Positions 2,667 through 46,671 of a stretch of 64,000 nucleotides of DNA are shown here, piece after piece. The notes under the pieces are model-generated. The model was not told the origin of the DNA and searched no databases. It worked only from the letters and a program-made list of their open reading frames with translations. How positions within the stretch are numbered: the first letter of the stretch is position 1; every line of letters starts with the position of its first letter. This DNA comes from Anaerolineae bacterium (GTDB lineage Bacteria; Chloroflexota; Anaerolineae; Anaerolineales; UBA4823), in the NCBI GenBank assembly GCA_041481345.1, contig JBGPBQ010000001.1, positions 6,046 to 70,045 on the forward strand. Reading direction: 5' to 3'. The translations under genes and the position numbers were made by a program.

Positions 2667-5201
2667 ATGGAAACGAATGGAAAATTTTACCTGGGGCGAA
2701 TTTTTGACCCCAAACAGACCCAAACCACCGACCAGCCTATACTGTACGAACCAGCAGACCTGACCACGCATGCGGTGGTGGTTGGAATGACCGGCTCGGG
2801 GAAGACGGGTCTGTGCATCGATCTATTGGAGGAAGCAGCGCTGAACAATATCCCCGCCCTGATGATCGATCCCAAGGGAGATATCACCAACACCTTGCTG
2901 CACTTCCCCAACCTCCTGCCGCAGGACTTCCAGCCGTGGGTAAACCCTGACCAGGCGCGCCGGGCCGGTAAAACGCTCGATCAGGCAGCTGCGGAAGCGG
3001 CCGCGCTGTGGAAGCAGGGTCTGACGGATTGGGGCATCGACCAACCCCGGCTGACGAAGCTGGCAGATGCGGCTCAGTTCACGGTTTTCACACCCGGCTC
3101 GGATGCGGGAATCCCGGTCAACATCTTAGCGTCATTGAAAGCTCCAGCGGTAGCGTGGGACACTAATAAAGAAACCCTGCGTGAACAGATCTCCGGCACG
3201 GTGATCGCCCTGCTCGGGTTGGTGGGCATGCAGAATATCGACCCGGTACGCTCACGCGAACACATCCTGCTTTCCAATATATTCGAAAATGCCTGGAGCC
3301 AGGGAAAAGACCTCGACCTGGGTGAGCTGATCTTACAAACCCAATCACCACCGTTCCCCAAGCTGGGGGTGTTCGACGTCAACACCTTTTTCCCCGAAAA
3401 AGACCGTTTTGAGCTGGCGATGCTGTTGAATAATATCCTGGCAGCCCCGGCATTCCAGGTGTGGATCGAAGGACAACCCTTGGAGATCGCTTCCCTGTTG
3501 TATACACCGGAGGGTAAACCGCGCCACAGCGTGTTTTACATTGCCCATCTGAGTGATTCCGAGCGCATGTTTTTCATTACCCTGCTGTATTCGGCAGTGG
3601 AAACCTGGATGCGCTCACAGACCGGCACCACAACACTGCGTGCCCTGGTGTACTTTGATGAAATCTACGGCTACCTACCGCCGGTGGCTAACCCACCCTC
3701 GAAACAACCGATGCTGCGCCTGCTCAAACAGGCGCGTGCGTTCGGCGTTGGTCAGGTGCTGGTGACGCAGAACCCGGTCGATGTGGACTATAAGGCGCTT
3801 TCCAACGCCGGCACCTGGATGATCGGCAAGCTGCAGACCGACCAGGATAAACAGCGCCTGTTGGATGGCCTGGACAGTGCCATGTCTGGCAGCCTGGACC
3901 GAGGTGAGTACGATCGCCTGATCTCCAGCCTGGGAAAGCGGGTCTTCCTGCTGCACAATGTGAACGCCAAAGGTCCAATGCTATTTCAGACCCGCTGGGC
4001 GATGAACTACCTGGCCGGGCCGCTGACGCGCACCCAAATCCCAGATCTCAATAAGCTGGCGGGTGCCACCTTGCAACCAACATCGGTAACAACGGCTGCA
4101 CCACAGGCTGCTGCCACAGCCAGTCTAGCTGCTGCCCCCGTGGCAGCCCAGTCAGCCGCGGTGCAGACCCCTGGCTCACCCGGAATATCAGTCTTGGGCT
4201 ACTCAGCCACCCGACCAGCCATTCCAGGTGATATCGGTGAATATTTCCTGCCCAACAATCTGACCTTCACCCAGGCGTTCAAAGCTGCGGGACGTGAACT
4301 CGCCTCTGGAGCACTCAGCCAGGGCTTGATCTACCGACCGGTTATTCTGTGCCAGGCGAGCGCACGCCTGGTAAATTTGAAATATAAACTCGATATCGAC
4401 GTTTCCAAAACCGCCCGGGTCGCCAACCCCGACCGACGGGGGATTGTTCGATGGGATGATTACCCCAGCGGTAGGATCGATCCGTATAGTTTCGACAAGG
4501 CTCCTGACCCCCAAGCGCGTTTCGCCTCGCTTGACGCCCCATTAAATGACACCAAAATGATGAATGCACTGCAGAAGGACTTCCTCGAATGGGCTTACCA
4601 CACCTCCCAGGTGACGGTGCACGCCAATGAGAGCCTCGACCTGTATGCCGGACCTGAGACAACCCAGGGCGATTTTCACGCCCAATGCAGCCGGGCTGCT
4701 CAGCAGGCATGTGCGGCTGAGCTCAGGAAAGCTTCATCGACGTACGACACCAAACTGCGGGCATTGCAAGACAAATTGGAGCACGAACAGGCGAAGCTAA
4801 AGCAAGACCAGGCTGAGCTCTCCAGTCGTAAATTCGAAGTGCTTGGCAGTGCTGCAGAGACGGTGGCGGGTTTACTCGGCTTTGGGCGTAAACGCTCCAT
4901 CAGCTCCTCCATATCAAAGCAGCGCATGGCCTCACACGCCAAGAGTGATGTGGACGAATCGGTCAATATGATCAAGGATTGCCAGGAGCAGATTGCCGCC
5001 ATCGAGCAAGAAAAGGCAGCTGATTTGAAGGCGGTGAATGATAAATGGGCGGAGATCGCCAGCCAGGTCAGCGAGATCCCCATCTCAGCCCAAAAGAAAG
5101 ACATCCTGCTTGATTTCTTCGGGGTGGCGTGGATGCCATACCACCTGACGAAGCTTAACGACCAGTCGTTCGAGCTGCCAGGGTTTACAGCAAGCAGCTG
5201 A
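2667..5201 (+). CDS. DUF853/YjgR-like (HerA/FtsK clade) P-loop NTPase with Ala/Pro linker and coiled-coil C-terminal half
   Basis: Walker A 'GMTGSGKTG', 'LMIDPKGD' and Walker B-like 'ALVYFDEIYGY' are present, together with 'VLVTQNPVDVDYKALSNAGTWMIGKLQT'. A low-complexity linker ('TTAAPQAAATASLAAAPVAAQSAAV') follows. A heptad-like segment 'LRALQDKLEHEQAKLKQDQAELSSRK' lies in the C-terminal half. The start is 6 nt after the PLD stop. Confidence 0.8.
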   Translation: METNGKFYLGRIFDPKQTQTTDQPILYEPADLTTHAVVVGMTGSGKTGLCIDLLEEAALNNIPALMIDPKGDITNTLLHFPNLLPQDFQPWVNPDQARRAGKTLDQAAAEAAALWKQGLTDWGIDQPRLTKLADAAQFTVFTPGSDAGIPVNILASLKAPAVAWDTNKETLREQISGTVIALLGLVGMQNIDPVRSREHILLSNIFENAWSQGKDLDLGELILQTQSPPFPKLGVFDVNTFFPEKDRFELAMLLNNILAAPAFQVWIEGQPLEIASLLYTPEGKPRHSVFYIAHLSDSERMFFITLLYSAVETWMRSQTGTTTLRALVYFDEIYGYLPPVANPPSKQPMLRLLKQARAFGVGQVLVTQNPVDVDYKALSNAGTWMIGKLQTDQDKQRLLDGLDSAMSGSLDRGEYDRLISSLGKRVFLLHNVNAKGPMLFQTRWAMNYLAGPLTRTQIPDLNKLAGATLQPTSVTTAAPQAAATASLAAAPVAAQSAAVQTPGSPGISVLGYSATRPAIPGDIGEYFLPNNLTFTQAFKAAGRELASGALSQGLIYRPVILCQASARLVNLKYKLDIDVSKTARVANPDRRGIVRWDDYPSGRIDPYSFDKAPDPQARFASLDAPLNDTKMMNALQKDFLEWAYHTSQVTVHANESLDLYAGPETTQGDFHAQCSRAAQQACAAELRKASSTYDTKLRALQDKLEHEQAKLKQDQAELSSRKFEVLGSAAETVAGLLGFGRKRSISSSISKQRMASHAKSDVDESVNMIKDCQEQIAAIEQEKAADLKAVNDKWAEIASQVSEIPISAQKKDILLDFFGVAWMPYHLTKLNDQSFELPGFTASS

Positions 5202-7158: not shown

Positions 7159-7229
7159 GATCAAGACTGATTTTTACGAAGGTTTAAACACGATACGTGA
7201 TTAAACCTTCGTACATTTTAAGGAGCCTA

Positions 7230-7763
7230 ATGATTGTCGAAACAATTGCTCAAGAAACCGTTTACCGGGGCCACGCCTTCAACGTGCGGCGCGATGAAGT
7301 GCGCTTCCCTAACCAACACACGACACACCTGGACATTATTGAGCATGTCGGGGCGGTCACCATCCTCCCGATCGATGCTGACGGTCGTATTCTGTTCGTG
7401 CGCCAGTACCGGCATGCGACCGGCAAAGAGCTGCTCGAGCTACCGGCGGGTACGCTGGATGCGGGTGAGACGGCTGAGAGCTGTGCCCTGCGGGAGATCC
7501 GGGAAGAGACGGGATATGCCGCGGGGAATTTAACCAAGCTGGGTGAATTCTACCTTGCCCCGGGTTACTCCACCGAATACATGGTTGTCTACCTGGCTAC
7601 CGAGCTGCACCCCGACCCCCTACCGGGTGACCAAGACGAATTCATCACCCTCGAACTGGTGCCGATTGAACAGGCGTATGGATTAGCGCTCAACGGTGGG
7701 CTGCAGGATGGCAAAAGCCTGGCGGCATTACTACTCGCACAAGCCCATATCCAACATTCCTGA
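7230..7763 (+). CDS. NUDIX hydrolase (ADP-ribose pyrophosphatase-like)
   Basis: Nudix box 'GTLDAGETAESCALREIREETGY'. ATG 7230 is preceded by 'aggag' at 7221-7225. Confidence 0.85.
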   Translation: MIVETIAQETVYRGHAFNVRRDEVRFPNQHTTHLDIIEHVGAVTILPIDADGRILFVRQYRHATGKELLELPAGTLDAGETAESCALREIREETGYAAGNLTKLGEFYLAPGYSTEYMVVYLATELHPDPLPGDQDEFITLELVPIEQAYGLALNGGLQDGKSLAALLLAQAHIQHS

Positions 7764-16526: not shown

Positions 16527-16913
16527 GGGTTATTTTCCTCTCATTCTCGGAATCGGGCTGGACATTTCGTTATCCGGAAGAGTTCTGAAGAATCAATCAA
16601 ATCATTATATTATATCGGCTGGCCAGTTAACTTACCGAAAGCAACGCCTACCGCCAGTCCAAAATATTGAATTCACCTGCAAAAAGCACATACTGAGCCA
16701 AAGCCTGCATACTCAGGTTTTTAATCCTGCCGGATTTACCTCCTCGGAAATCTGGCGGTAAGTTTTAGAGAATTAAAAACCATAAAATGAAAAGAAAAGC
16801 ATCGCCTGGGTGTAGATATCTATTAATTTGTCGTCAAACGATAAACACTGATAGAATCGATTTGCACTTCGAATTTCATGCGAAATCAATTGAGATCGTT
16901 CATAGGAGTTACC

Positions 16914-18158: not shown

Positions 18159-19928
18159 ATGAAGAAAAATCGCTTGTACAAAACTTTTGGCGTGCTCATC
18201 GCTGTGGTGATGATATTGACAGCGTGCGCCCCCACGGTCTCGCAGCCAATCGCAACGCCACCGACTGCGGTGCCACCTACCCAAGCAGCTGCGCCGACTG
18301 CAGTCCCACCGACCGCGGTCCCACCGACTGCGGTCCCACCGACTAAAGTCCCACCGACAGCGCCGCCAGCCAAAACTACGATCATTATCGGTGTTACCGA
18401 TAAAATCGCTAGCCTTGACCCAGCGGATGCCTACGCAACACGTGATTGGGAACTGATCAGAAATATCAGTCTCGGCTTAGTCAAGTTTAAGGCAGGCACC
18501 ACTGATATGGAGCCAGGTCTGGCAACCGACTTGGGTAAAATTTCAGCCGATGGGCTGACTTATACCTTCACACTGAAGGATGGGATCAAGTTTGGTGATG
18601 GAACTCCCCTCGATGCAACAATATATGCGGCGCAGCTCAACAGGCTACTAACCATCGGACCCACCTGCCCGAACGATGTGGCTGATACGCTTACAATACC
18701 CTATGTAAAGAGCATCGAAGCACCGGATGCCAAGACCATCGTCATCACATTGAAGAATCCTGTTGCTTACTTCATACAGATCCTGACCACTGCACCCTAT
18801 GTGGCATCTGATCCGAAGACCTTCAAAGCTGATGCATGCAATCTCTTTCCAAGCGCACCGATTTACGGCGTCGGTCCCTGGTTCATCTCACAATACACCA
18901 AAGATGAACAGATTGTGCTTGAGCCGAACCCCTATTACACGGGTGAATTAAAACCGCAGGTTAAACAGATCATCGTGAAAGACTACGCCGACCCGCAAAC
19001 CATGGCTTTGGCCGTCCAGAACGGAGAGATCGACATTGCCTGGCGTCAATTTTCACCCGAGCAGCTCACTCCTCTGAAGAGCGTGGCTGGTTTAACCGTG
19101 GGAACAGTACCCGGCGGCTCGATCCGCTATTTGGTCCTCAACCACACCATGAAACCCACAGATGACCCGAACGTGGATAAGGCGATCGCATCTGCCATCG
19201 ACCGCAATGAGATTGCAGATACAGTCTATGGTGGAAACGTATCGCCGCTGTACTCTCAGATTCCACCCGGCTGGCTCGGTGCCACAGAGGTATTTGACAC
19301 CATGTACGCCTCTCCGAACCTGGATGCAGCCAAGAAATACCTGGAAGCATCGGGGTATTCTGCCAGCAATCCACTAAAACTCGAGATGTGGTATCCACCT
19401 GAGCACTACGGCGCGTCAACCGCAGCCTGGATGGAAGTGATCAAGAAACAGCTCGAGGCTACGGGTGAAATCCAGGTGACTTTGAAGGCTCAGGAATGGA
19501 GCACCTACGTGCCTGCCCTGACTGGTGGTAAAGCTTATGCGGTGGGTGTTTTGGGTTGGTTCTTTGACTACCCTGACTCTTCCAACTACATGACTCCATG
19601 GGTCTACAACCGGGGTGAAGGCACTAATATTACGATCCCTAAAGAAGGCTCAAGTTATGGTGATCCAATCAATGATAAAGCCAAGCAATTGGTGGATCTG
19701 CTTTCAAAGGCAGATACCGAGTCAGATCAGGCTAAAAGAGCTGACCTATATAAGCAAGCCCAGGATCTGTATTCGGATCTGGTGGTGACTATCCCACTGT
19801 TCTTCAATGCGGAACATGTCGTCTACCGCGCTAACATCAAGGGCTCAAGCACTTTTGCATACCCAGAGACCCTGAACATTGGTCCTGATGTCATGTTCAA
19901 CTACGCAACGCTTTCTGTAACCCCATAA
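18159..19928 (+). CDS. ABC transporter substrate-binding lipoprotein, family 5 (peptide/nickel type)
   Basis: Trimmed to ATG 18159 after 'aaggagg'. It has the lipobox 'LTACAP', an (A)VPPT repeat linker and a family-5 SBP body ('IIIGVTDKIASLDPADAY', 'LEPNPYY'). Confidence 0.9.
   Translation: MKKNRLYKTFGVLIAVVMILTACAPTVSQPIATPPTAVPPTQAAAPTAVPPTAVPPTAVPPTKVPPTAPPAKTTIIIGVTDKIASLDPADAYATRDWELIRNISLGLVKFKAGTTDMEPGLATDLGKISADGLTYTFTLKDGIKFGDGTPLDATIYAAQLNRLLTIGPTCPNDVADTLTIPYVKSIEAPDAKTIVITLKNPVAYFIQILTTAPYVASDPKTFKADACNLFPSAPIYGVGPWFISQYTKDEQIVLEPNPYYTGELKPQVKQIIVKDYADPQTMALAVQNGEIDIAWRQFSPEQLTPLKSVAGLTVGTVPGGSIRYLVLNHTMKPTDDPNVDKAIASAIDRNEIADTVYGGNVSPLYSQIPPGWLGATEVFDTMYASPNLDAAKKYLEASGYSASNPLKLEMWYPPEHYGASTAAWMEVIKKQLEATGEIQVTLKAQEWSTYVPALTGGKAYAVGVLGWFFDYPDSSNYMTPWVYNRGEGTNITIPKEGSSYGDPINDKAKQLVDLLSKADTESDQAKRADLYKQAQDLYSDLVVTIPLFFNAEHVVYRANIKGSSTFAYPETLNIGPDVMFNYATLSVTP
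18290..18362 (+). repeat. in-frame 15-bp tandem repeat encoding an (A)VPPT linker
   Basis: About four tandem units of '(g/c)cggtcccaccgac(t/c)' give 'TAVPPTAVPPTAVPPTKVPPT'. Confidence 0.8.
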
Positions 19929-29290: not shown

Positions 29291-29408
29291 CGAATTGAGC
29301 GATGCTACGGCCTTTACGTTATGATTCCTCACGCATGAACTAAGATTAATAAACCTCTTTGCCATGCCTGGAGTTCAAGGTATACTAATTGTTGACCGGA
29401 GTTTATCT

Positions 29409-29633
29409 ATGACTGAAAAGACCTGGGAAACCCTGAAAATCCAATACTGCCAGCACGTGGATGAGAAGGTTGGCCTGCAGGCGCAGGTGGTTTACCCACC
29501 TGATATGATGCCCGACCAACCGGCGCGCATCCTGGCGCACCGCTGCAGCCATGGCTTTGCCTGCAACCTAGATGGACGCCCTAGCTGCATCTGGGCGGGC
29601 ACGAACCCAACCTTCGACCCGTTTAAAGAATAA
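29409..29633 (+). CDS. small Cys/His-containing hypothetical protein
   Basis: 74 aa from ATG 29409, after 'ggag'. Four Cys and several His residues ('YCQH', 'HRCSHGFACNLDGRPSC'). No family recognised. Confidence 0.35.
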   Translation: MTEKTWETLKIQYCQHVDEKVGLQAQVVYPPDMMPDQPARILAHRCSHGFACNLDGRPSCIWAGTNPTFDPFKE

Positions 29634-29647
29634 GAATTTCCCCTAAT

Positions 29648-29735
29648 GTAGGAACGCAGGGGAGGGATTTGAATATGGGACACTCGGGATTCCTCCTCTC
29701 CGGTCATAAATCAACCGGATAAGCTGCGCATCTAC
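29648..29735 (+). repeat. REP-like palindromic element, copy 1 (with nested hairpin)
   Basis: The element reads 'gtaggaacgcaggggagggattt...gggattcctcctct[ccggtcataaatcaaccgg]ataagctgcgcatctac'. It has a GTAG head and a CTAC tail. Confidence 0.75.
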
Positions 29736-29828
29736 TAGGAGAGGTATAAATAGTGCCGTGAAGGATTAAGCAGCTACCCCCCTCGATAGTTATCCAATGA
29801 GCCCTTACACGACAGATATCTCACTGAA

Positions 29829-30373
29829 TCACGTGTGTAATTGATCCTCGGCCCACCTATCGGGATTGGTATTAATATATTTCCAGATATTTTCATATTC
29901 CACCTGGTTGCAAATAATTTTCTCGTAATAATTACTCTGCCAAACGGGTGGATGGGTAAATCCGCGTATTGCATTGATCCTAAAGGAAACAGATGCCTTG
30001 TACGCCCGCACGATAGTGCCTAATGAATAGGAAGCAATATTCGCGTTACTGTTTGGGTGCTGGGTAGGAATTTGATCGTGGTTCATCTGGGATTCTTCCG
30101 GAGCATCCTTAACTATAAATACAATTCCATGGACATGGTTCGGCATTATAACGAAGGAAGAAAAATCTGATTGTGGAAAGCGCTTTCCCAGTTGTACCCA
30201 TTGTTCAAAAGCGATTCTACCTGATGGATTCAGGTCCATTACACCATTCTCAACGGTACCGAATAGGTGCACCCGTTGATAAGTGACTATAGTTACAAAA
30301 TAAGCACCTTCCAGGGAATAATCATAATCCTTATGCGGATGGAATGACGATTCTTATGTAACGGGTCAGACAT
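29829..30373 (-). pseudogene. REP-associated tyrosine transposase (RayT / IS200-like Y1 transposase), frameshifted
   Basis: HUH motif 'MPNHVHGIV', catalytic Tyr region 'VWQSNYYEKII', and 'YINTNPDRW'. The expected N-terminus 'MSDPLHKNRHSIRI' starts at ATG 30373 in another frame. The in-frame continuation 'DYDYSLEGAYFVTIVTYQRVHLFG' has no start codon. A 1-nt indel near 30328-30334 would restore one ORF. Confidence 0.8.
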
Positions 30374-30408
30374 AAGAGTTCATCGAATGGGTGAATAACA
30401 ATAAATTG

Positions 30409-30469
30409 GTAGGAGCGCAGGGGAGGGATTTGAAATGCAGTATATGGAATTCCTCCCCTGCGCCTCTAC
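30409..30469 (+). repeat. REP-like palindromic element, copy 2 (best preserved)
   Basis: The arms are 'gtaggagcgcaggggagggatt' (30409-30430) and 'aattcctcccctgcgcctctac' (30448-30469). They pair at 19 of 22 positions around a 17-nt loop. Confidence 0.85.
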
Positions 30470-30484
30470 GAGGAAACAACTTAT

Positions 30485-30542
30485 GTAAGCGGGGGGAGGA
30501 TTTGAGCATGTGGCAATCCAGAATCCACTCCTGCACCCCTAG
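30485..30542 (+). repeat. REP-like palindromic element, copy 3 (degenerate)
   Basis: 'gtaagcggggggaggatttgag...cagaatccactcctgcacccctag' has the same layout with several substitutions. Confidence 0.55.
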
Positions 30543-30565
30543 AAGGATTTATTTTCAATCCGCGG

Positions 30566-31750
30566 TTATTGGATTACGCCCAGCTTACGACCAACCCCGG
30601 CGAAGATCTCAAGACCCTTATCCAGGTCCTCCCGGCTGTGGGCGGCAGAGATCATCACACGAATGCGGGCTTTGCCCTTGGGGACGGTGGGGAAGCCGAT
30701 CGACATGGCAAACAGACTATTTTCGAACAGCTCGCGGCTGAACTGCTGAGCCAGGGGGGCTTCACCCAGCATGATGGGGGTGATGGGGGTGGTGCTCAAC
30801 CCTGTATCAAAGCCCAGCTTGCGCATCTCAGCCTTGAAATAGCGGGTGTTGTCCCACAGCTTATCCACCAGCTCGGTCGAGCCCTCCAGAATGTCCAGCG
30901 CTGCCAGGCAGGCTGCCACGTCCGGGACGGTCATGGCTGATGAGAATAGGAATGGGCGCCCGCGTTGACGCAGCCACTCGACCACCACCGGGTTGCCGGC
31001 GGAAACCCCACCGACCACGCCAAAGGCTTTGGAGAGCGTGCCAATCTCAACATCCACTTTACCGTGCAAGCCAAAATGGTCCACGATGCCGCGCCCGCCC
31101 TTGCCAATCACACCTTCGCCGTGCGCATCATCAACCATCAAGATGGCGTCGTAGTTCTGCACCACCTCGTAAATCTTATCCAATGGAGAAATGTCTCCAT
31201 CCATGCTGAAGACGCCATCCGTGATAACCATGGCGCGCGGATATTTGAGGCGTTCCTCGCTCAGCACCCGGTTCAAGTCCTCAGGGTTGCAATGGGCATA
31301 GCGGATGATCTTGGCGCCGCTCAGCCGGCAGCCATCGATGATGCTGGCATGGTTGAGCTCGTCTGAGAAGACGGCATCGTCTTTACCCACCAATGCCGGG
31401 ATGGTGCCCAAGTTGGCAGTGAAACCTGATTGGAAGGTGATGGCGGCTTGTACCCCCTTGAAAGCCGCCAGGCGGCGTTCCAGCTCGAGGTGCAGGTCCA
31501 TGGTACCGGCAATGGAACGCACTGCAGCCGGTCCCACCCCATATTTCCTAACTGCGTCCTGGGCAGCCTGGACGATGCGCGGGTGATTGGCAAGCCCCAG
31601 GTAATTATTGGAGCAGAAGTTGAGCACGCATTTGCCATCCACCACCAGCCATGCTCCCTGGGGGCTGCTGAGCGTGCGGATGCGGTTATATAACCCGTCA
31701 TCTTTCAGTTTTTGAAGTTCATCCTGGATCCACTGTAGTTTATCGGTCAT
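30566..31750 (-). CDS. kbl: glycine C-acetyltransferase / 2-amino-3-ketobutyrate CoA ligase-type PLP enzyme
   Basis: '[10 protein letters not shown]', '[12 protein letters not shown]' and 'DDAHGEG' are present, plus 'GTLSKAFG' carrying the PLP Lys. 8-amino-7-oxononanoate synthase cannot be excluded. Confidence 0.75.
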
Positions 31751-39383: not shown

Positions 39384-39497
39384 CCTTGCTAGCAATTCAT
39401 CGCCAAAGTTGATACTCCCCAGTTTAGTAGGGAGTCTCAATTGGTGAAATGTAAATCGAAATAGCCAGATAATCCCATCTTCTCGGGACGTAAATAA

Positions 39498-39539
39498 AAA
39501 CTTCCGAAGAAATGTTAGCCAAATTTTCTTCGGAAGTTT
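39498..39539. terminator. bidirectional terminator between convergent genes
   Basis: Perfect 15-bp stem 'aaacttccgaagaaa'/'tttcttcggaagttt', A-rich on the left and T-rich on the right. Confidence 0.7.
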
Positions 39540-39555
39540 GGGTTTAATCGTAAAA

Positions 39556-46420: not shown

Positions 46421-46435
46421 AAAAAACATATGTAA

Positions 46436-46498
46436 GGGCGAAGCATCCGTTGGTGGATAAAAATATTACCAACCTTTGAAGGACGAATGCTTCGCCCC
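46436..46498. repeat. long hairpin (GGGCGAAGCAT...ATGCTTCGCCC type)
   Basis: The arms 'gggcgaagcatccg' and 'cgaatgcttcgccc' carry one mismatch. An inner pairing 'ttggt...accaa' is also present. A partial arm copy 'gtgcttcgcccctac' lies at 46650-46664. Confidence 0.7.
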
Positions 46499-46508
46499 AA
46501 CAAGATAG

Positions 46509-46596
46509 ATAGGGGCGCAGGGGAGAAATTTGAACAAGTAATATTTGGAATCCCACCCCTCCGGTCAAATGTCTGACCGGACTGGTGCGCCTCTAC
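46509..46596 (+). repeat. REP-like palindromic element, copy 4 (with nested hairpin)
   Basis: The element reads 'ataggggcgcaggggagaaattt...ggaatcccacccct[ccggtcaaatgtctgaccgg]actggtgcgcctctac'. The architecture matches copy 1 at 29648-29735. Confidence 0.7.
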
Positions 46597-46671
46597 AACC
46601 ATTATGAAACATTCATGTCCGGGCGGCGCATGAGGGTGCTTATACCCTCGTGCTTCGCCCCTACGTATAAT

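Follow-up and report, generated by a model that had tools for sequence, protein, structure and literature searches.

A stretch of 64,000 nucleotides (nt) from an uncultured Anaerolineae bacterium (the window, which here always means this whole stretch) was analyzed around a minus-strand Y1/HUH gene encoding a RayT (TnpA-REP) protein and around the repetitive extragenic palindromes (REPs) that accompany it. An earlier note, made from the sequence alone, had described this gene as bracketed by three copies of one imperfect palindrome, with a fourth copy 16 kb away at 46509-46596. All four copies were recovered at these positions, and a fifth, decayed copy that the note had not contained was found inside the RayT open reading frame (ORF). 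The features of the locus, with E values from nhmmer and a profile of the hairpins of relatives, are as follows.

29829..30373, minus strand: RayT/TnpA-REP pseudogene, fitting subclass 2.4; ATG at 30373, TGA at 29829-29831, repaired product of 181 amino acids (aa)
30329..30334, minus strand: frameshift site, one A being lost; ATAAGG on the sense strand in place of the (A/C)TAAAGG required by the ortholog and the family
30129..30137, minus strand: HUH motif H80-V81-H82 within MPNHVHG, from alignment with homologues and 4ER8
30051..30113, minus strand: decayed REP copy within the RayT ORF, residues ~88-108, in the linker that joins the HUH strand to the following helix
29937..29942, minus strand: W145-Q146, aligned to W94-Q95 of E. 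coli TnpA-REP
29862..29879, minus strand: catalytic Tyr motif YINTNP, in WKYINTNP; Y166 and N170 are the counterparts of Y115 and N119 of E. coli TnpA-REP
29648..29735, plus strand: REP copy 1, 88-nt long form (E = 4e-10)
30409..30469, strand '.': REP copy 2, 61-nt 'double-foot' hairpin, best preserved (E = 3e-18)
30485..30542, plus strand: REP copy 3, degenerate, 112 nt upstream of RayT (E = 2e-4)
46509..46596, plus strand: REP copy 4, 88-nt long form, intergenic, 16 kb from RayT (E = 5e-11)

From its ATG, the RayT gene runs for 14 codons in frame, is interrupted by a 1-nt deletion and then continues for 167 intact codons until the TGA. The frame opened by the ATG at 30373 corresponds to MSDPLHKNRHSIRI, and the remainder of the protein lies in a different frame. 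As had been proposed for a 1-nt indel near 30328-30334, one A added to 'cgcatAAgg' (30329-30334) restored a single ORF of 181 codons. The repaired protein aligned over 99-100% of its length with homologues of ~181 aa, with the junction ...SIRLKDYDYS... / ...SIRLKDYDYSLEGAYFVT..., and a full-length alignment with more than 300 homologues was obtained, many of which bear the Joint Genome Institute (JGI) name RayT. Residues invariant across this alignment include P78, N79, H80, H82, W145, Q146, Y166, N170 and P171.

When a profile of the RayT family was compared with all PDB sequences, the sole match was 4ER8, the E. coli TnpA-REP (E = 1.5e-6), and no IS200-type match was obtained at E <= 1. The profile alignment pairs W94, Q95, Y115 and N119 of 4ER8 with W145, Q146, Y166 and N170. 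The peptide WQSNYYEKII, previously taken for the tyrosine region, aligns with W94-Q95, the region of the E. coli enzyme that contacts GTAG (PMC6006769); the catalytic tyrosine is Y166 in WKYINTNP. An AlphaFold model of the repaired protein (predicted local distance difference test, pLDDT, 75.8) displayed the expected beta-alpha-beta Y1 fold, and Foldseek ranked 4ER8 at the top, followed by the transposase structures of IS608, ISDra2 and IS200.

The Y1 HUH core of a TnpA-REP enzyme is present in the repaired protein, namely the HuH motif, a catalytic tyrosine, a metal ligand four residues further on and an IS200-like fold. The reference motifs of subclass 2.4 (NH[IFV]H, WQ and YIxNNP) were taken from Table 1 of PMC6006769; NHVH and WQ agree exactly, while the Y motif reads YINTNP. 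The spacing from HuH to Tyr (H82 to Y166) is 84 aa compared with a subclass median of 88, and both the length of 181 aa and the lack of a C-terminal tail domain fit this subclass. Judged by these motifs and by features unique to the subclass, the predicted protein fits TnpA-REP subclass 2.4 (Quentin 2018), equivalent to RAYT Group 4 (Bertels 2017), and the appropriate annotation of the gene is RayT/TnpA-REP pseudogene, not IS200 transposase. Its neighbors in the window are an aminotransferase gene and an 89-aa ORF, with no tnpB partner, and no second Y1 gene was detected within the 64 kb.

Palindromes with a 5' GT[AG]G foot lie within 1 kb on either side of RayT. In copy 2, which has the structure GTAG-GA-GCGCAGGGGAGGGATT / AATTCCTCCCCTGCGC-CT-CTAC and is located 36 nt upstream of the RayT ATG, the 22-nt arms pair at 19 of 22 positions, as had been noted before, and the single-stranded DNA folds with a dG of -18.2 kcal/mol (z = -5.8). 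Copy 1 is located 94 nt downstream of RayT, directly past the stop codon of the convergent 89-aa ORF. Its outer stem is GTAGG..GCGCA / TGCGC..CTAC and its inner stem GGGGAGGGATT / GGATTCCTCC, and a nested hairpin of ~25 nt, CCGGTCATAAATCAACCGG, is inserted in its 3' arm. Copy 4 shares this long form, with the second hairpin (CCGGTCA...TGACCGG) at the same point of the 3' arm; the orthologous intergenic position in the related metagenome-assembled genome (MAG) L043 carries the short form. The folding of copy 3 was no better than that of shuffled sequences (z = 0.1), and its hairpin is lost.

The earlier statement that every copy starts with GTAG-like and ends with CTAC-like bases held for copies 1 and 2, whereas copy 4 starts with ATAG and copy 3 ends with CTAG. 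Both a 5' GTAG and a 3' CTAC foot, the defining trait of 'double-foot' REPs, are found on copies 1 and 2 as well as on relatives' hairpins. Because this double foot is nearly symmetric, a GTAG-footed hairpin is presented by either strand. The head motif TAGRNNCGCAGGGGAGRRAT(T) (TAGRNNCGCAGGGGAGRRATT) occurs four times in the 64 kb compared with 0.12 expected, a count reached in 0 of 100 shuffles, and outside RayT the profile of relatives' hairpins matched copies 1 to 4 and nothing else in the window. No Rfam match was obtained at the gathering threshold in a scan of the whole window. Promoter and terminator scans of the locus gave counts at the level of shuffled sequences, and no predicted terminator overlaps any repeat.

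The copy inside the RayT ORF is a marginal profile match (E = 0.047), with a repeat copy at 30059-30099. It can be aligned to the intact in-ORF hairpins of the homologue loci L045, L058 and L084, has a minimum free energy of -8.9 compared with -38.7 kcal/mol for the intact L045 copy, and coincides with a low-confidence linker of the structure model (pLDDT < 50, residues 91-113). The hairpin is intact inside the RayT ORF of the clade members L045, L058, L084 and L085, and exact matches to the repeat head were found within the RayT genes of L045 and L058 in the scan of public genomes described below. Among 84 homologue loci (80 from metagenomes and four further non-redundant ones), a GT[AG]G...C[TC]AC palindrome was present in the ORF at 43, where it is translated in frame. 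Its offset from the first aligned codon is constant (median 267 nt) and places it after the HUH strand and before the following helix. Where a locus had both in-ORF and flanking palindromes, the two shared a family-specific core (12 of 13 loci). The enlarged, variable beta3-alphaC linker with an in-frame REP insertion that characterizes subclass 2.4 is therefore found in this family as well. We considered the in-ORF REP as a novelty and dropped this view, as it is a published hallmark of the subclass (PMC6006769). A degenerate copy 3 and a decayed copy within the ORF fit the view that these elements have ceased to be maintained; however, the in-ORF copy is also decayed in intact orthologs, so that its decay predates the frameshift.

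A different arrangement was observed at L060 2639-3481 (an Anaerolineaceae MAG), where the RayT homologue matches in two pieces ~380 nt apart when ~17 residues would be expected; this points to a linker that has grown considerably, perhaps through insertion of several REPs, or to disruption of the gene.

The dispersal of the hairpin was analyzed by scanning 185,579 species genomes with TAGRNNCGCAGGGGAGRRAT, from which 80 stretches were listed, so that the following counts are lower bounds. Roughly 50 of these contain the whole 61-nt hairpin, which follows the pattern GTAG-NN-GCGCAGGGGAGGRAT-loop-ATCCCTCCCCTGCGC-NN-CTAC, and every one of them comes from a Chloroflexota MAG labelled Anaerolineae or 'Chloroflexia', with several species represented; the listed matches in other phyla are lone and without a hairpin. 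One MAG carries the hairpin at at least 12 separate loci and another at at least 8. The source genome itself is not among the matches listed, in which the closest relatives are ~76-85% identical to the window. Several hairpin-bearing MAGs encode RayTs of the same clade (54-75% identity), and hairpins cluster around the orthologous RayT genes in L002/L061, L055 and L086. The occurrence of the palindrome away from the RayT gene, at copy 4 and at dozens of loci in Chloroflexota MAGs, supports the REPtron reading put forward in the earlier note. A repeat found nowhere else in the genome and a protein grouping with classical IS200/IS605 TnpA had been named there as grounds for refutation, and neither was borne out.

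The hairpins of the relatives also showed variation of several kinds. Many copies lie within a non-coding miniature inverted-repeat transposable element (MITE) of ~245 nt, with 13-bp terminal inverted repeats (TIRs) GTAATTACTCACC / GGTGAGTAATTAC. It was seen at L040 6521-6748, L049 4496-4718 and L072 137-359, at L028, L051 and L021, and further at L023, L066, L012, L014 and L038, all in related Anaerolineae MAGs. Comparison of MITE copies that are otherwise nearly identical (e.g., L040 and L049) showed the hairpin's loop and inner stem in opposite orientations, with no such flip of the outer mismatched bases. The MITE is absent from the window, which rules it out as the source of the window's copies. 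Interrupted hairpins were seen at L017 (~173-240), L048 (~520-587) and also L036 (~4300-4410). In L017 and L048, which belong to two MAGs, the left arm is broken directly past GGGAGGRAT by a common sequence, GTTGTGGACCCATAATTCTGGACACTTTTTTGG..., probably the end of an insertion sequence (IS) that targets the REP loop, as IS1397 and ISPpu9-type elements target REPs in Proteobacteria. At L004, L017 and L022 (MAG CAWELB), an identical hairpin is followed by at least 50 nt of identical downstream sequence (…CTACAATATATTTATTGTTTGGTCAATTTTGGACCGTTATATATAG…), indicating that there the hairpin belongs to a larger repeated element.

The long-form REP adjoins RayT in three species, represented by the window, L002 (2300-2498) and L055 (~7230-7330). 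In all three the nested hairpin of ~25 nt interrupts the 3' arm at one fixed position, preceded by CC(T/C)CT and followed by (T)GCGC, with the junction ...CC(T/C)CT | CCGGTCA...(C/G)T | GCGC.... It is a speculative and rather doubtful idea that the REP variants, i.e., the nested hairpin at its fixed position and the inverted loop and inner stem, are footprints of RayT strand transfer within the stem. If this were true, the variants would mark the subclass 2.4 cleavage site at a CT within the double-foot hairpin, and the strain would offer a natural RayT knockout in which REP decay could be measured.

The gene order aminotransferase / RayT / 89-aa ORF / MoxR ATPase is common to the window and several relatives. 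L002/L061 have the same slot with a RayT that is 75% identical to that of the window; in L083 (67% identity) the slot is kept on the side of the 89-aa ORF and MoxR, and in L055 (59% identity) on the aminotransferase side. The most distant cases are L135 2761-4504 and L156 2683-4504 (corresponding to 29829-31750 of the window), in which a 41%-identical RayT immediately follows the same aminotransferase gene (77-79% identity to the window at the protein level), and the L156 RayT ORF carries a different palindrome. Either a fast-evolving RayT has persisted in this slot across deep divergence, or RayT genes landed there repeatedly. The 89-aa ORF (29364-29633, plus strand), which contains several Cys residues, is convergent with RayT and probably encodes 74 aa from an internal Met; it is conserved beside RayT in L002/L061 and L083 (91-94% identity). 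The contig L002 comes from a sister species (81% nucleotide identity), has the same gene order with an intact 177-aa ortholog and was assembled from the same JGI metagenome as a contig bearing the frameshift. It is probably from the same species as the GTDB MAG 'Anaerolineae bacterium OBJ_0618_130150_61' (L061); both match the window at equal identities, and their RayT proteins fall into one cluster.

Between the repaired RayT and the L002 ortholog, the synonymous divergence (dS) is 0.71, close to the value of 0.81 for the adjacent aminotransferase gene, which indicates that RayT was inherited together with its neighbor. The same slot in several species, the lack of tnpB and the single Y1 gene in the window argue for a fixed, vertically inherited gene, and RayT behaves as a domesticated gene and not as an IS. 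In agreement with the earlier note, the GC content was lower at the locus (0.41-0.43) than in its flanks (0.55-0.62). The orthologs share this low GC (0.40-0.42 compared with 0.55-0.57). Among 48 RayT-homologue loci with at least 3 kb of flank (e.g., L061, L055, L058, L098, L033), 41 were AT-richer than their flanks, with a median difference of -4.7 GC points and one of -13 to -16 points in the clade of the window. This holds even where RayT is syntenic and vertically inherited. We rejected low GC as a sign of recent horizontal transfer, since the orthologs share both GC and position and the trait is family-wide.

At the point of the frameshift, the syntenic ortholog in L002 reads 'cgcctaaaggat' / 'cgcctaaaggattatgac' and is intact. 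The identical deletion is present in two other assemblies, both of which align to the window without gaps: a Logan contig from SRR29605729 (1281/1282 identical) and a contig of the JGI metagenome 3300053059 (1610/1611 identical). Each of these contigs differs from the window at one other position and is therefore a separately built consensus. The ratio of nonsynonymous to synonymous divergence (dN/dS) between the repaired RayT and the L002 ortholog is 0.22, with no further lesion, compared with 0.03 for the adjacent aminotransferase gene against that of the L002 contig. This value and the lack of other lesions indicate that the inactivation is recent; the gene was thus under purifying selection through most of its divergence from the ortholog before it was inactivated. 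Programmed frameshifting was rejected: it would need a -1 shift at CGC-ATA-AGG, but this site lacks an X-XXY-YYZ slippery heptamer and has a run of just two A residues, and the orthologs are in frame. Rescue by an alternative start was likewise discarded: the sole downstream start in the long frame is GTG 30272 (147 aa), and because this start removes beta-strand 1 (residues 23-30 of the model), functional rescue appears unlikely.

Taken together, our results suggest, with a probability of roughly 85%, that the locus is a REPtron, i.e., a single-copy, chromosomally fixed TnpA-REP/RAYT gene of subclass 2.4 (Group 4) with its cognate double-foot REPs, that was recently inactivated. This reading builds on what was observed, namely the anatomy of the locus and its frameshift, the family of the protein, the conserved gene order and the spread of the repeat among relatives; the catalytic mechanism, the loss of function and the cognate relation of enzyme and substrate are inferred. 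If the intact enzyme works like the TnpA-REP of E. coli (PMC8266576), it would bind REP hairpins folded in single-stranded DNA, with its W-Q region reading the 5' GTAG foot. Cleavage would take place nearby through a 5'-phosphotyrosine intermediate at Y166, with a metal held by H80, H82 and N170, and the rejoining of strands may spread or maintain REP copies around the chromosome. The loss of one A in codon 15 would leave a 14-residue in-frame N-terminal peptide or a product without the first beta-strand. Given this frameshift, the enzyme is most likely inactive and the REPs are relics without an attending enzyme.

We weighed this reading against three others. The earlier note had left open whether the enzyme is decaying or affected by a sequencing error, and a RayT that is intact and active in the organism, with the missing A due to an error of sequencing or assembly, would account for a 167-codon remainder free of stops and frameshifts besides the single indel, for the dN/dS of 0.22 and for the position of the site in a short A run. 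AA as opposed to AAA is not an error-prone homopolymer, the same gapless sequence was recovered in the Logan and JGI assemblies, and truncated ORFs of 85, 105 and 136 aa were called in the three sources by their respective gene callers. A real, recent mutation is therefore favored, and an error is improbable. A second possibility is that the hairpins are host regulatory structures, such as terminators, mRNA stabilizers or protein-binding sites, and that their proximity to a Y1 gene is incidental. Copy 1 directly past the stop of a convergent ORF and copy 4 between genes occupy typical positions of 3' stabilizers, and secondary roles of this kind are known for REPs (PMC8266576). Against this, no T-tract, terminator or Rfam family was found at the copies, and the family-specific palindrome tracks RayT over dozens of unrelated loci and even sits within its ORF, which incidental proximity cannot explain. 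We consider it very unlikely as an alternative, and a regulatory side-function is compatible with a REPtron.

An IS of the IS200/IS605 type, consisting of TnpA with its own subterminal hairpins at the left and right ends (LE and RE) and mobile as a unit, would share the fold of the IS608, ISDra2 and IS200 enzymes and could explain hairpins on both sides of the gene and a GC content below that of the flanks. The motifs of the protein are NHVH, WQ and YINTNP and not DH[VI]H, W[TS] and Y[IV]ENQ, and the search of PDB yielded 4ER8 without any IS200-type sequence at E <= 1. The hairpins are of one type with no distinct LE and RE, no tnpB is present, RayT genes of diverged sequence fill one chromosomal slot in several species, the hairpin occurs alone, without the gene, at many loci, and the low GC is a property of the family (41/48 loci). 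As the sub-threshold Pfam score and the REP_Tyr_transpos match given below also indicate, the protein does not group with classical IS200/IS605 TnpA, and it is scarcely conceivable that the locus is such an IS.

Several observations nevertheless weigh against the REPtron reading. The Pfam Y1_Tnp model gave only 16.8 bits compared with a cut-off of 23 for the repaired protein, a score below the gathering threshold that also speaks against an IS. The NCBIfam model NF047646 (REP_Tyr_transpos), the sole NCBIfam match, gave 48.1 bits compared with a cut-off of 80; this model appears to be tuned to proteobacterial groups. The Y motif deviates from YIxNNP at position four (T169), although Y, I, N and P are kept. 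The three assemblies bearing the frameshift may stem from the same or related samples. Hairpin cleavage is extrapolated from E. coli, S. maltophilia and Marinomonas, and no biochemistry exists for subclass 2.4 (PMC8266576); the earlier statement that REP/RayT systems have been characterized mainly in Proteobacteria is correct (PMC8266576). Finally, a single copy was found away from RayT in these 64 kb of the source genome, and the 16-mers associated with Group 4 RAYTs are reported to be repeated only to a modest extent, at ~14 per replicon (PMC5581495); the evidence for REP amplification is thus weaker than for Groups 2 and 3. One distal copy in 64 kb suggests a modest REP family, in line with the abundance of Group 4 16-mers.

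Further palindromes were observed in the window. Beside REP copy 4 lies a second, unrelated double-foot palindrome, GTAAGGGCGAAGCATCCGT...ACGAATGCTTCGCCCCAAC (46431-46502; z = -5.7 as single-stranded DNA), with a remnant, GTGCTTCGCCCCTAC, nearby (46644-46665) that is also present at the orthologous site of L043. Other RayTs of subclass 2.4 (L095, L096, L112) have such GGGCGAAGCAT-type palindromes as their cognate REPs. No RayT matching it was found within the window, and the source genome therefore probably has or had a second REPtron. Other strong inverted repeats are unrelated to the REP family: 28-nt arms at 16716 (16716-16781), a terminator-like hairpin with 22-nt arms AAAAACTTCCGAAGAAA/TTTCTTCGGAAGTTT (39491-39546), an 18-nt near-perfect hairpin (7175-7213) and a 40-nt palindrome (18296-18335).

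The locus leaves current understanding unchanged and adds a well-documented REPtron from the Anaerolineae, a poorly studied and mostly uncultured class, to subclass 2.4/Group 4. The RayT slot has remained constant while the sequence and, in distant relatives, the REP type have diverged, which supports vertical inheritance and domestication of RayT/REP pairs outside the Proteobacteria. The frameshifted allele and the intact ortholog of a sister species, from the same JGI sample, allow the fate of REPs in the presence and in the absence of the enzyme to be compared in a natural setting. We found no previous description of a long-form REP whose nested hairpin keeps a fixed position, of a chromosomal slot kept down to 41% RayT identity, or of the relatives' hairpin in a 245-nt TIR-bounded MITE with flipped loops.

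IS200/IS605 TnpA proteins (IS608, ISDra2) resemble the RayT of the window in the Y1 HUH fold and in the recognition of hairpins on single-stranded DNA, but differ in their signature motifs DH[VI]H and Y[IV]ENQ. Such elements are mobile as a unit, present in multiple copies, bounded by distinct LE and RE and often accompanied by tnpB, none of which was seen at this locus. The REPtron of E. coli K-12 (TnpA-REP/YafM, 4ER8; subclass 2.2/Group 2) is closer: it likewise consists of a single-copy Y1 HUH gene with flanking GTAG-footed REPs, its W94, Q95, Y115 and N119 correspond to W145, Q146, Y166 and N170, and it is the best PDB match both by sequence and by fold. However, the sequence identity is only ~16%, the HuH motif of the E. 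coli protein is DHLH and its gene has no in-ORF REP. The E. coli REPs are single-foot, ~35 nt long, bulged and often paired as bacterial interspersed mosaic elements (BIMEs), whereas the hairpins of the window are 61 nt long, nearly symmetric and double-foot, with a 2-nt mismatch beside the foot.

The closest resemblance is to subclass 2.4/Group 4, whose members have the HuH motif NH[IFV]H, the W motif WQ and a Y motif of the YIxNNP type, a length of ~190 aa without a C-terminal tail domain, a variable beta3-alphaC insertion derived from an in-frame REP, double-foot REPs with 5' GT[AG]G and 3' C[TC]AC, and a low gene copy number; double-foot and in-gene REPs have both been described for it (PMC6006769). 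Reported hosts are Cyanobacteria, Bacteroidetes, Chlorobia, Caldilineae and other phyla (PMC6006769, PMC5581495), with Group 4 RAYTs being common in Cyanobacteria, Chlorobia and Caldilineae (PMC5581495), and both GTAG REPs (PMC3733652) and Group 4 RAYTs (PMC5581495) were already known from Chloroflexi. In contrast to the published members, the window stems from an uncultured Anaerolineae bacterium and its gene is frameshifted. Its Y motif has T at the fourth position, and its long-form REP with the 25-nt nested hairpin is not part of the published description. In the sub-clade formed by the window, L002/L061 and L055 the in-ORF REP is decayed, while it is intact in L045, L058, L084 and L085. 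In all essentials the locus matches the published descriptions and is a new example of such a system with a recent inactivating mutation.

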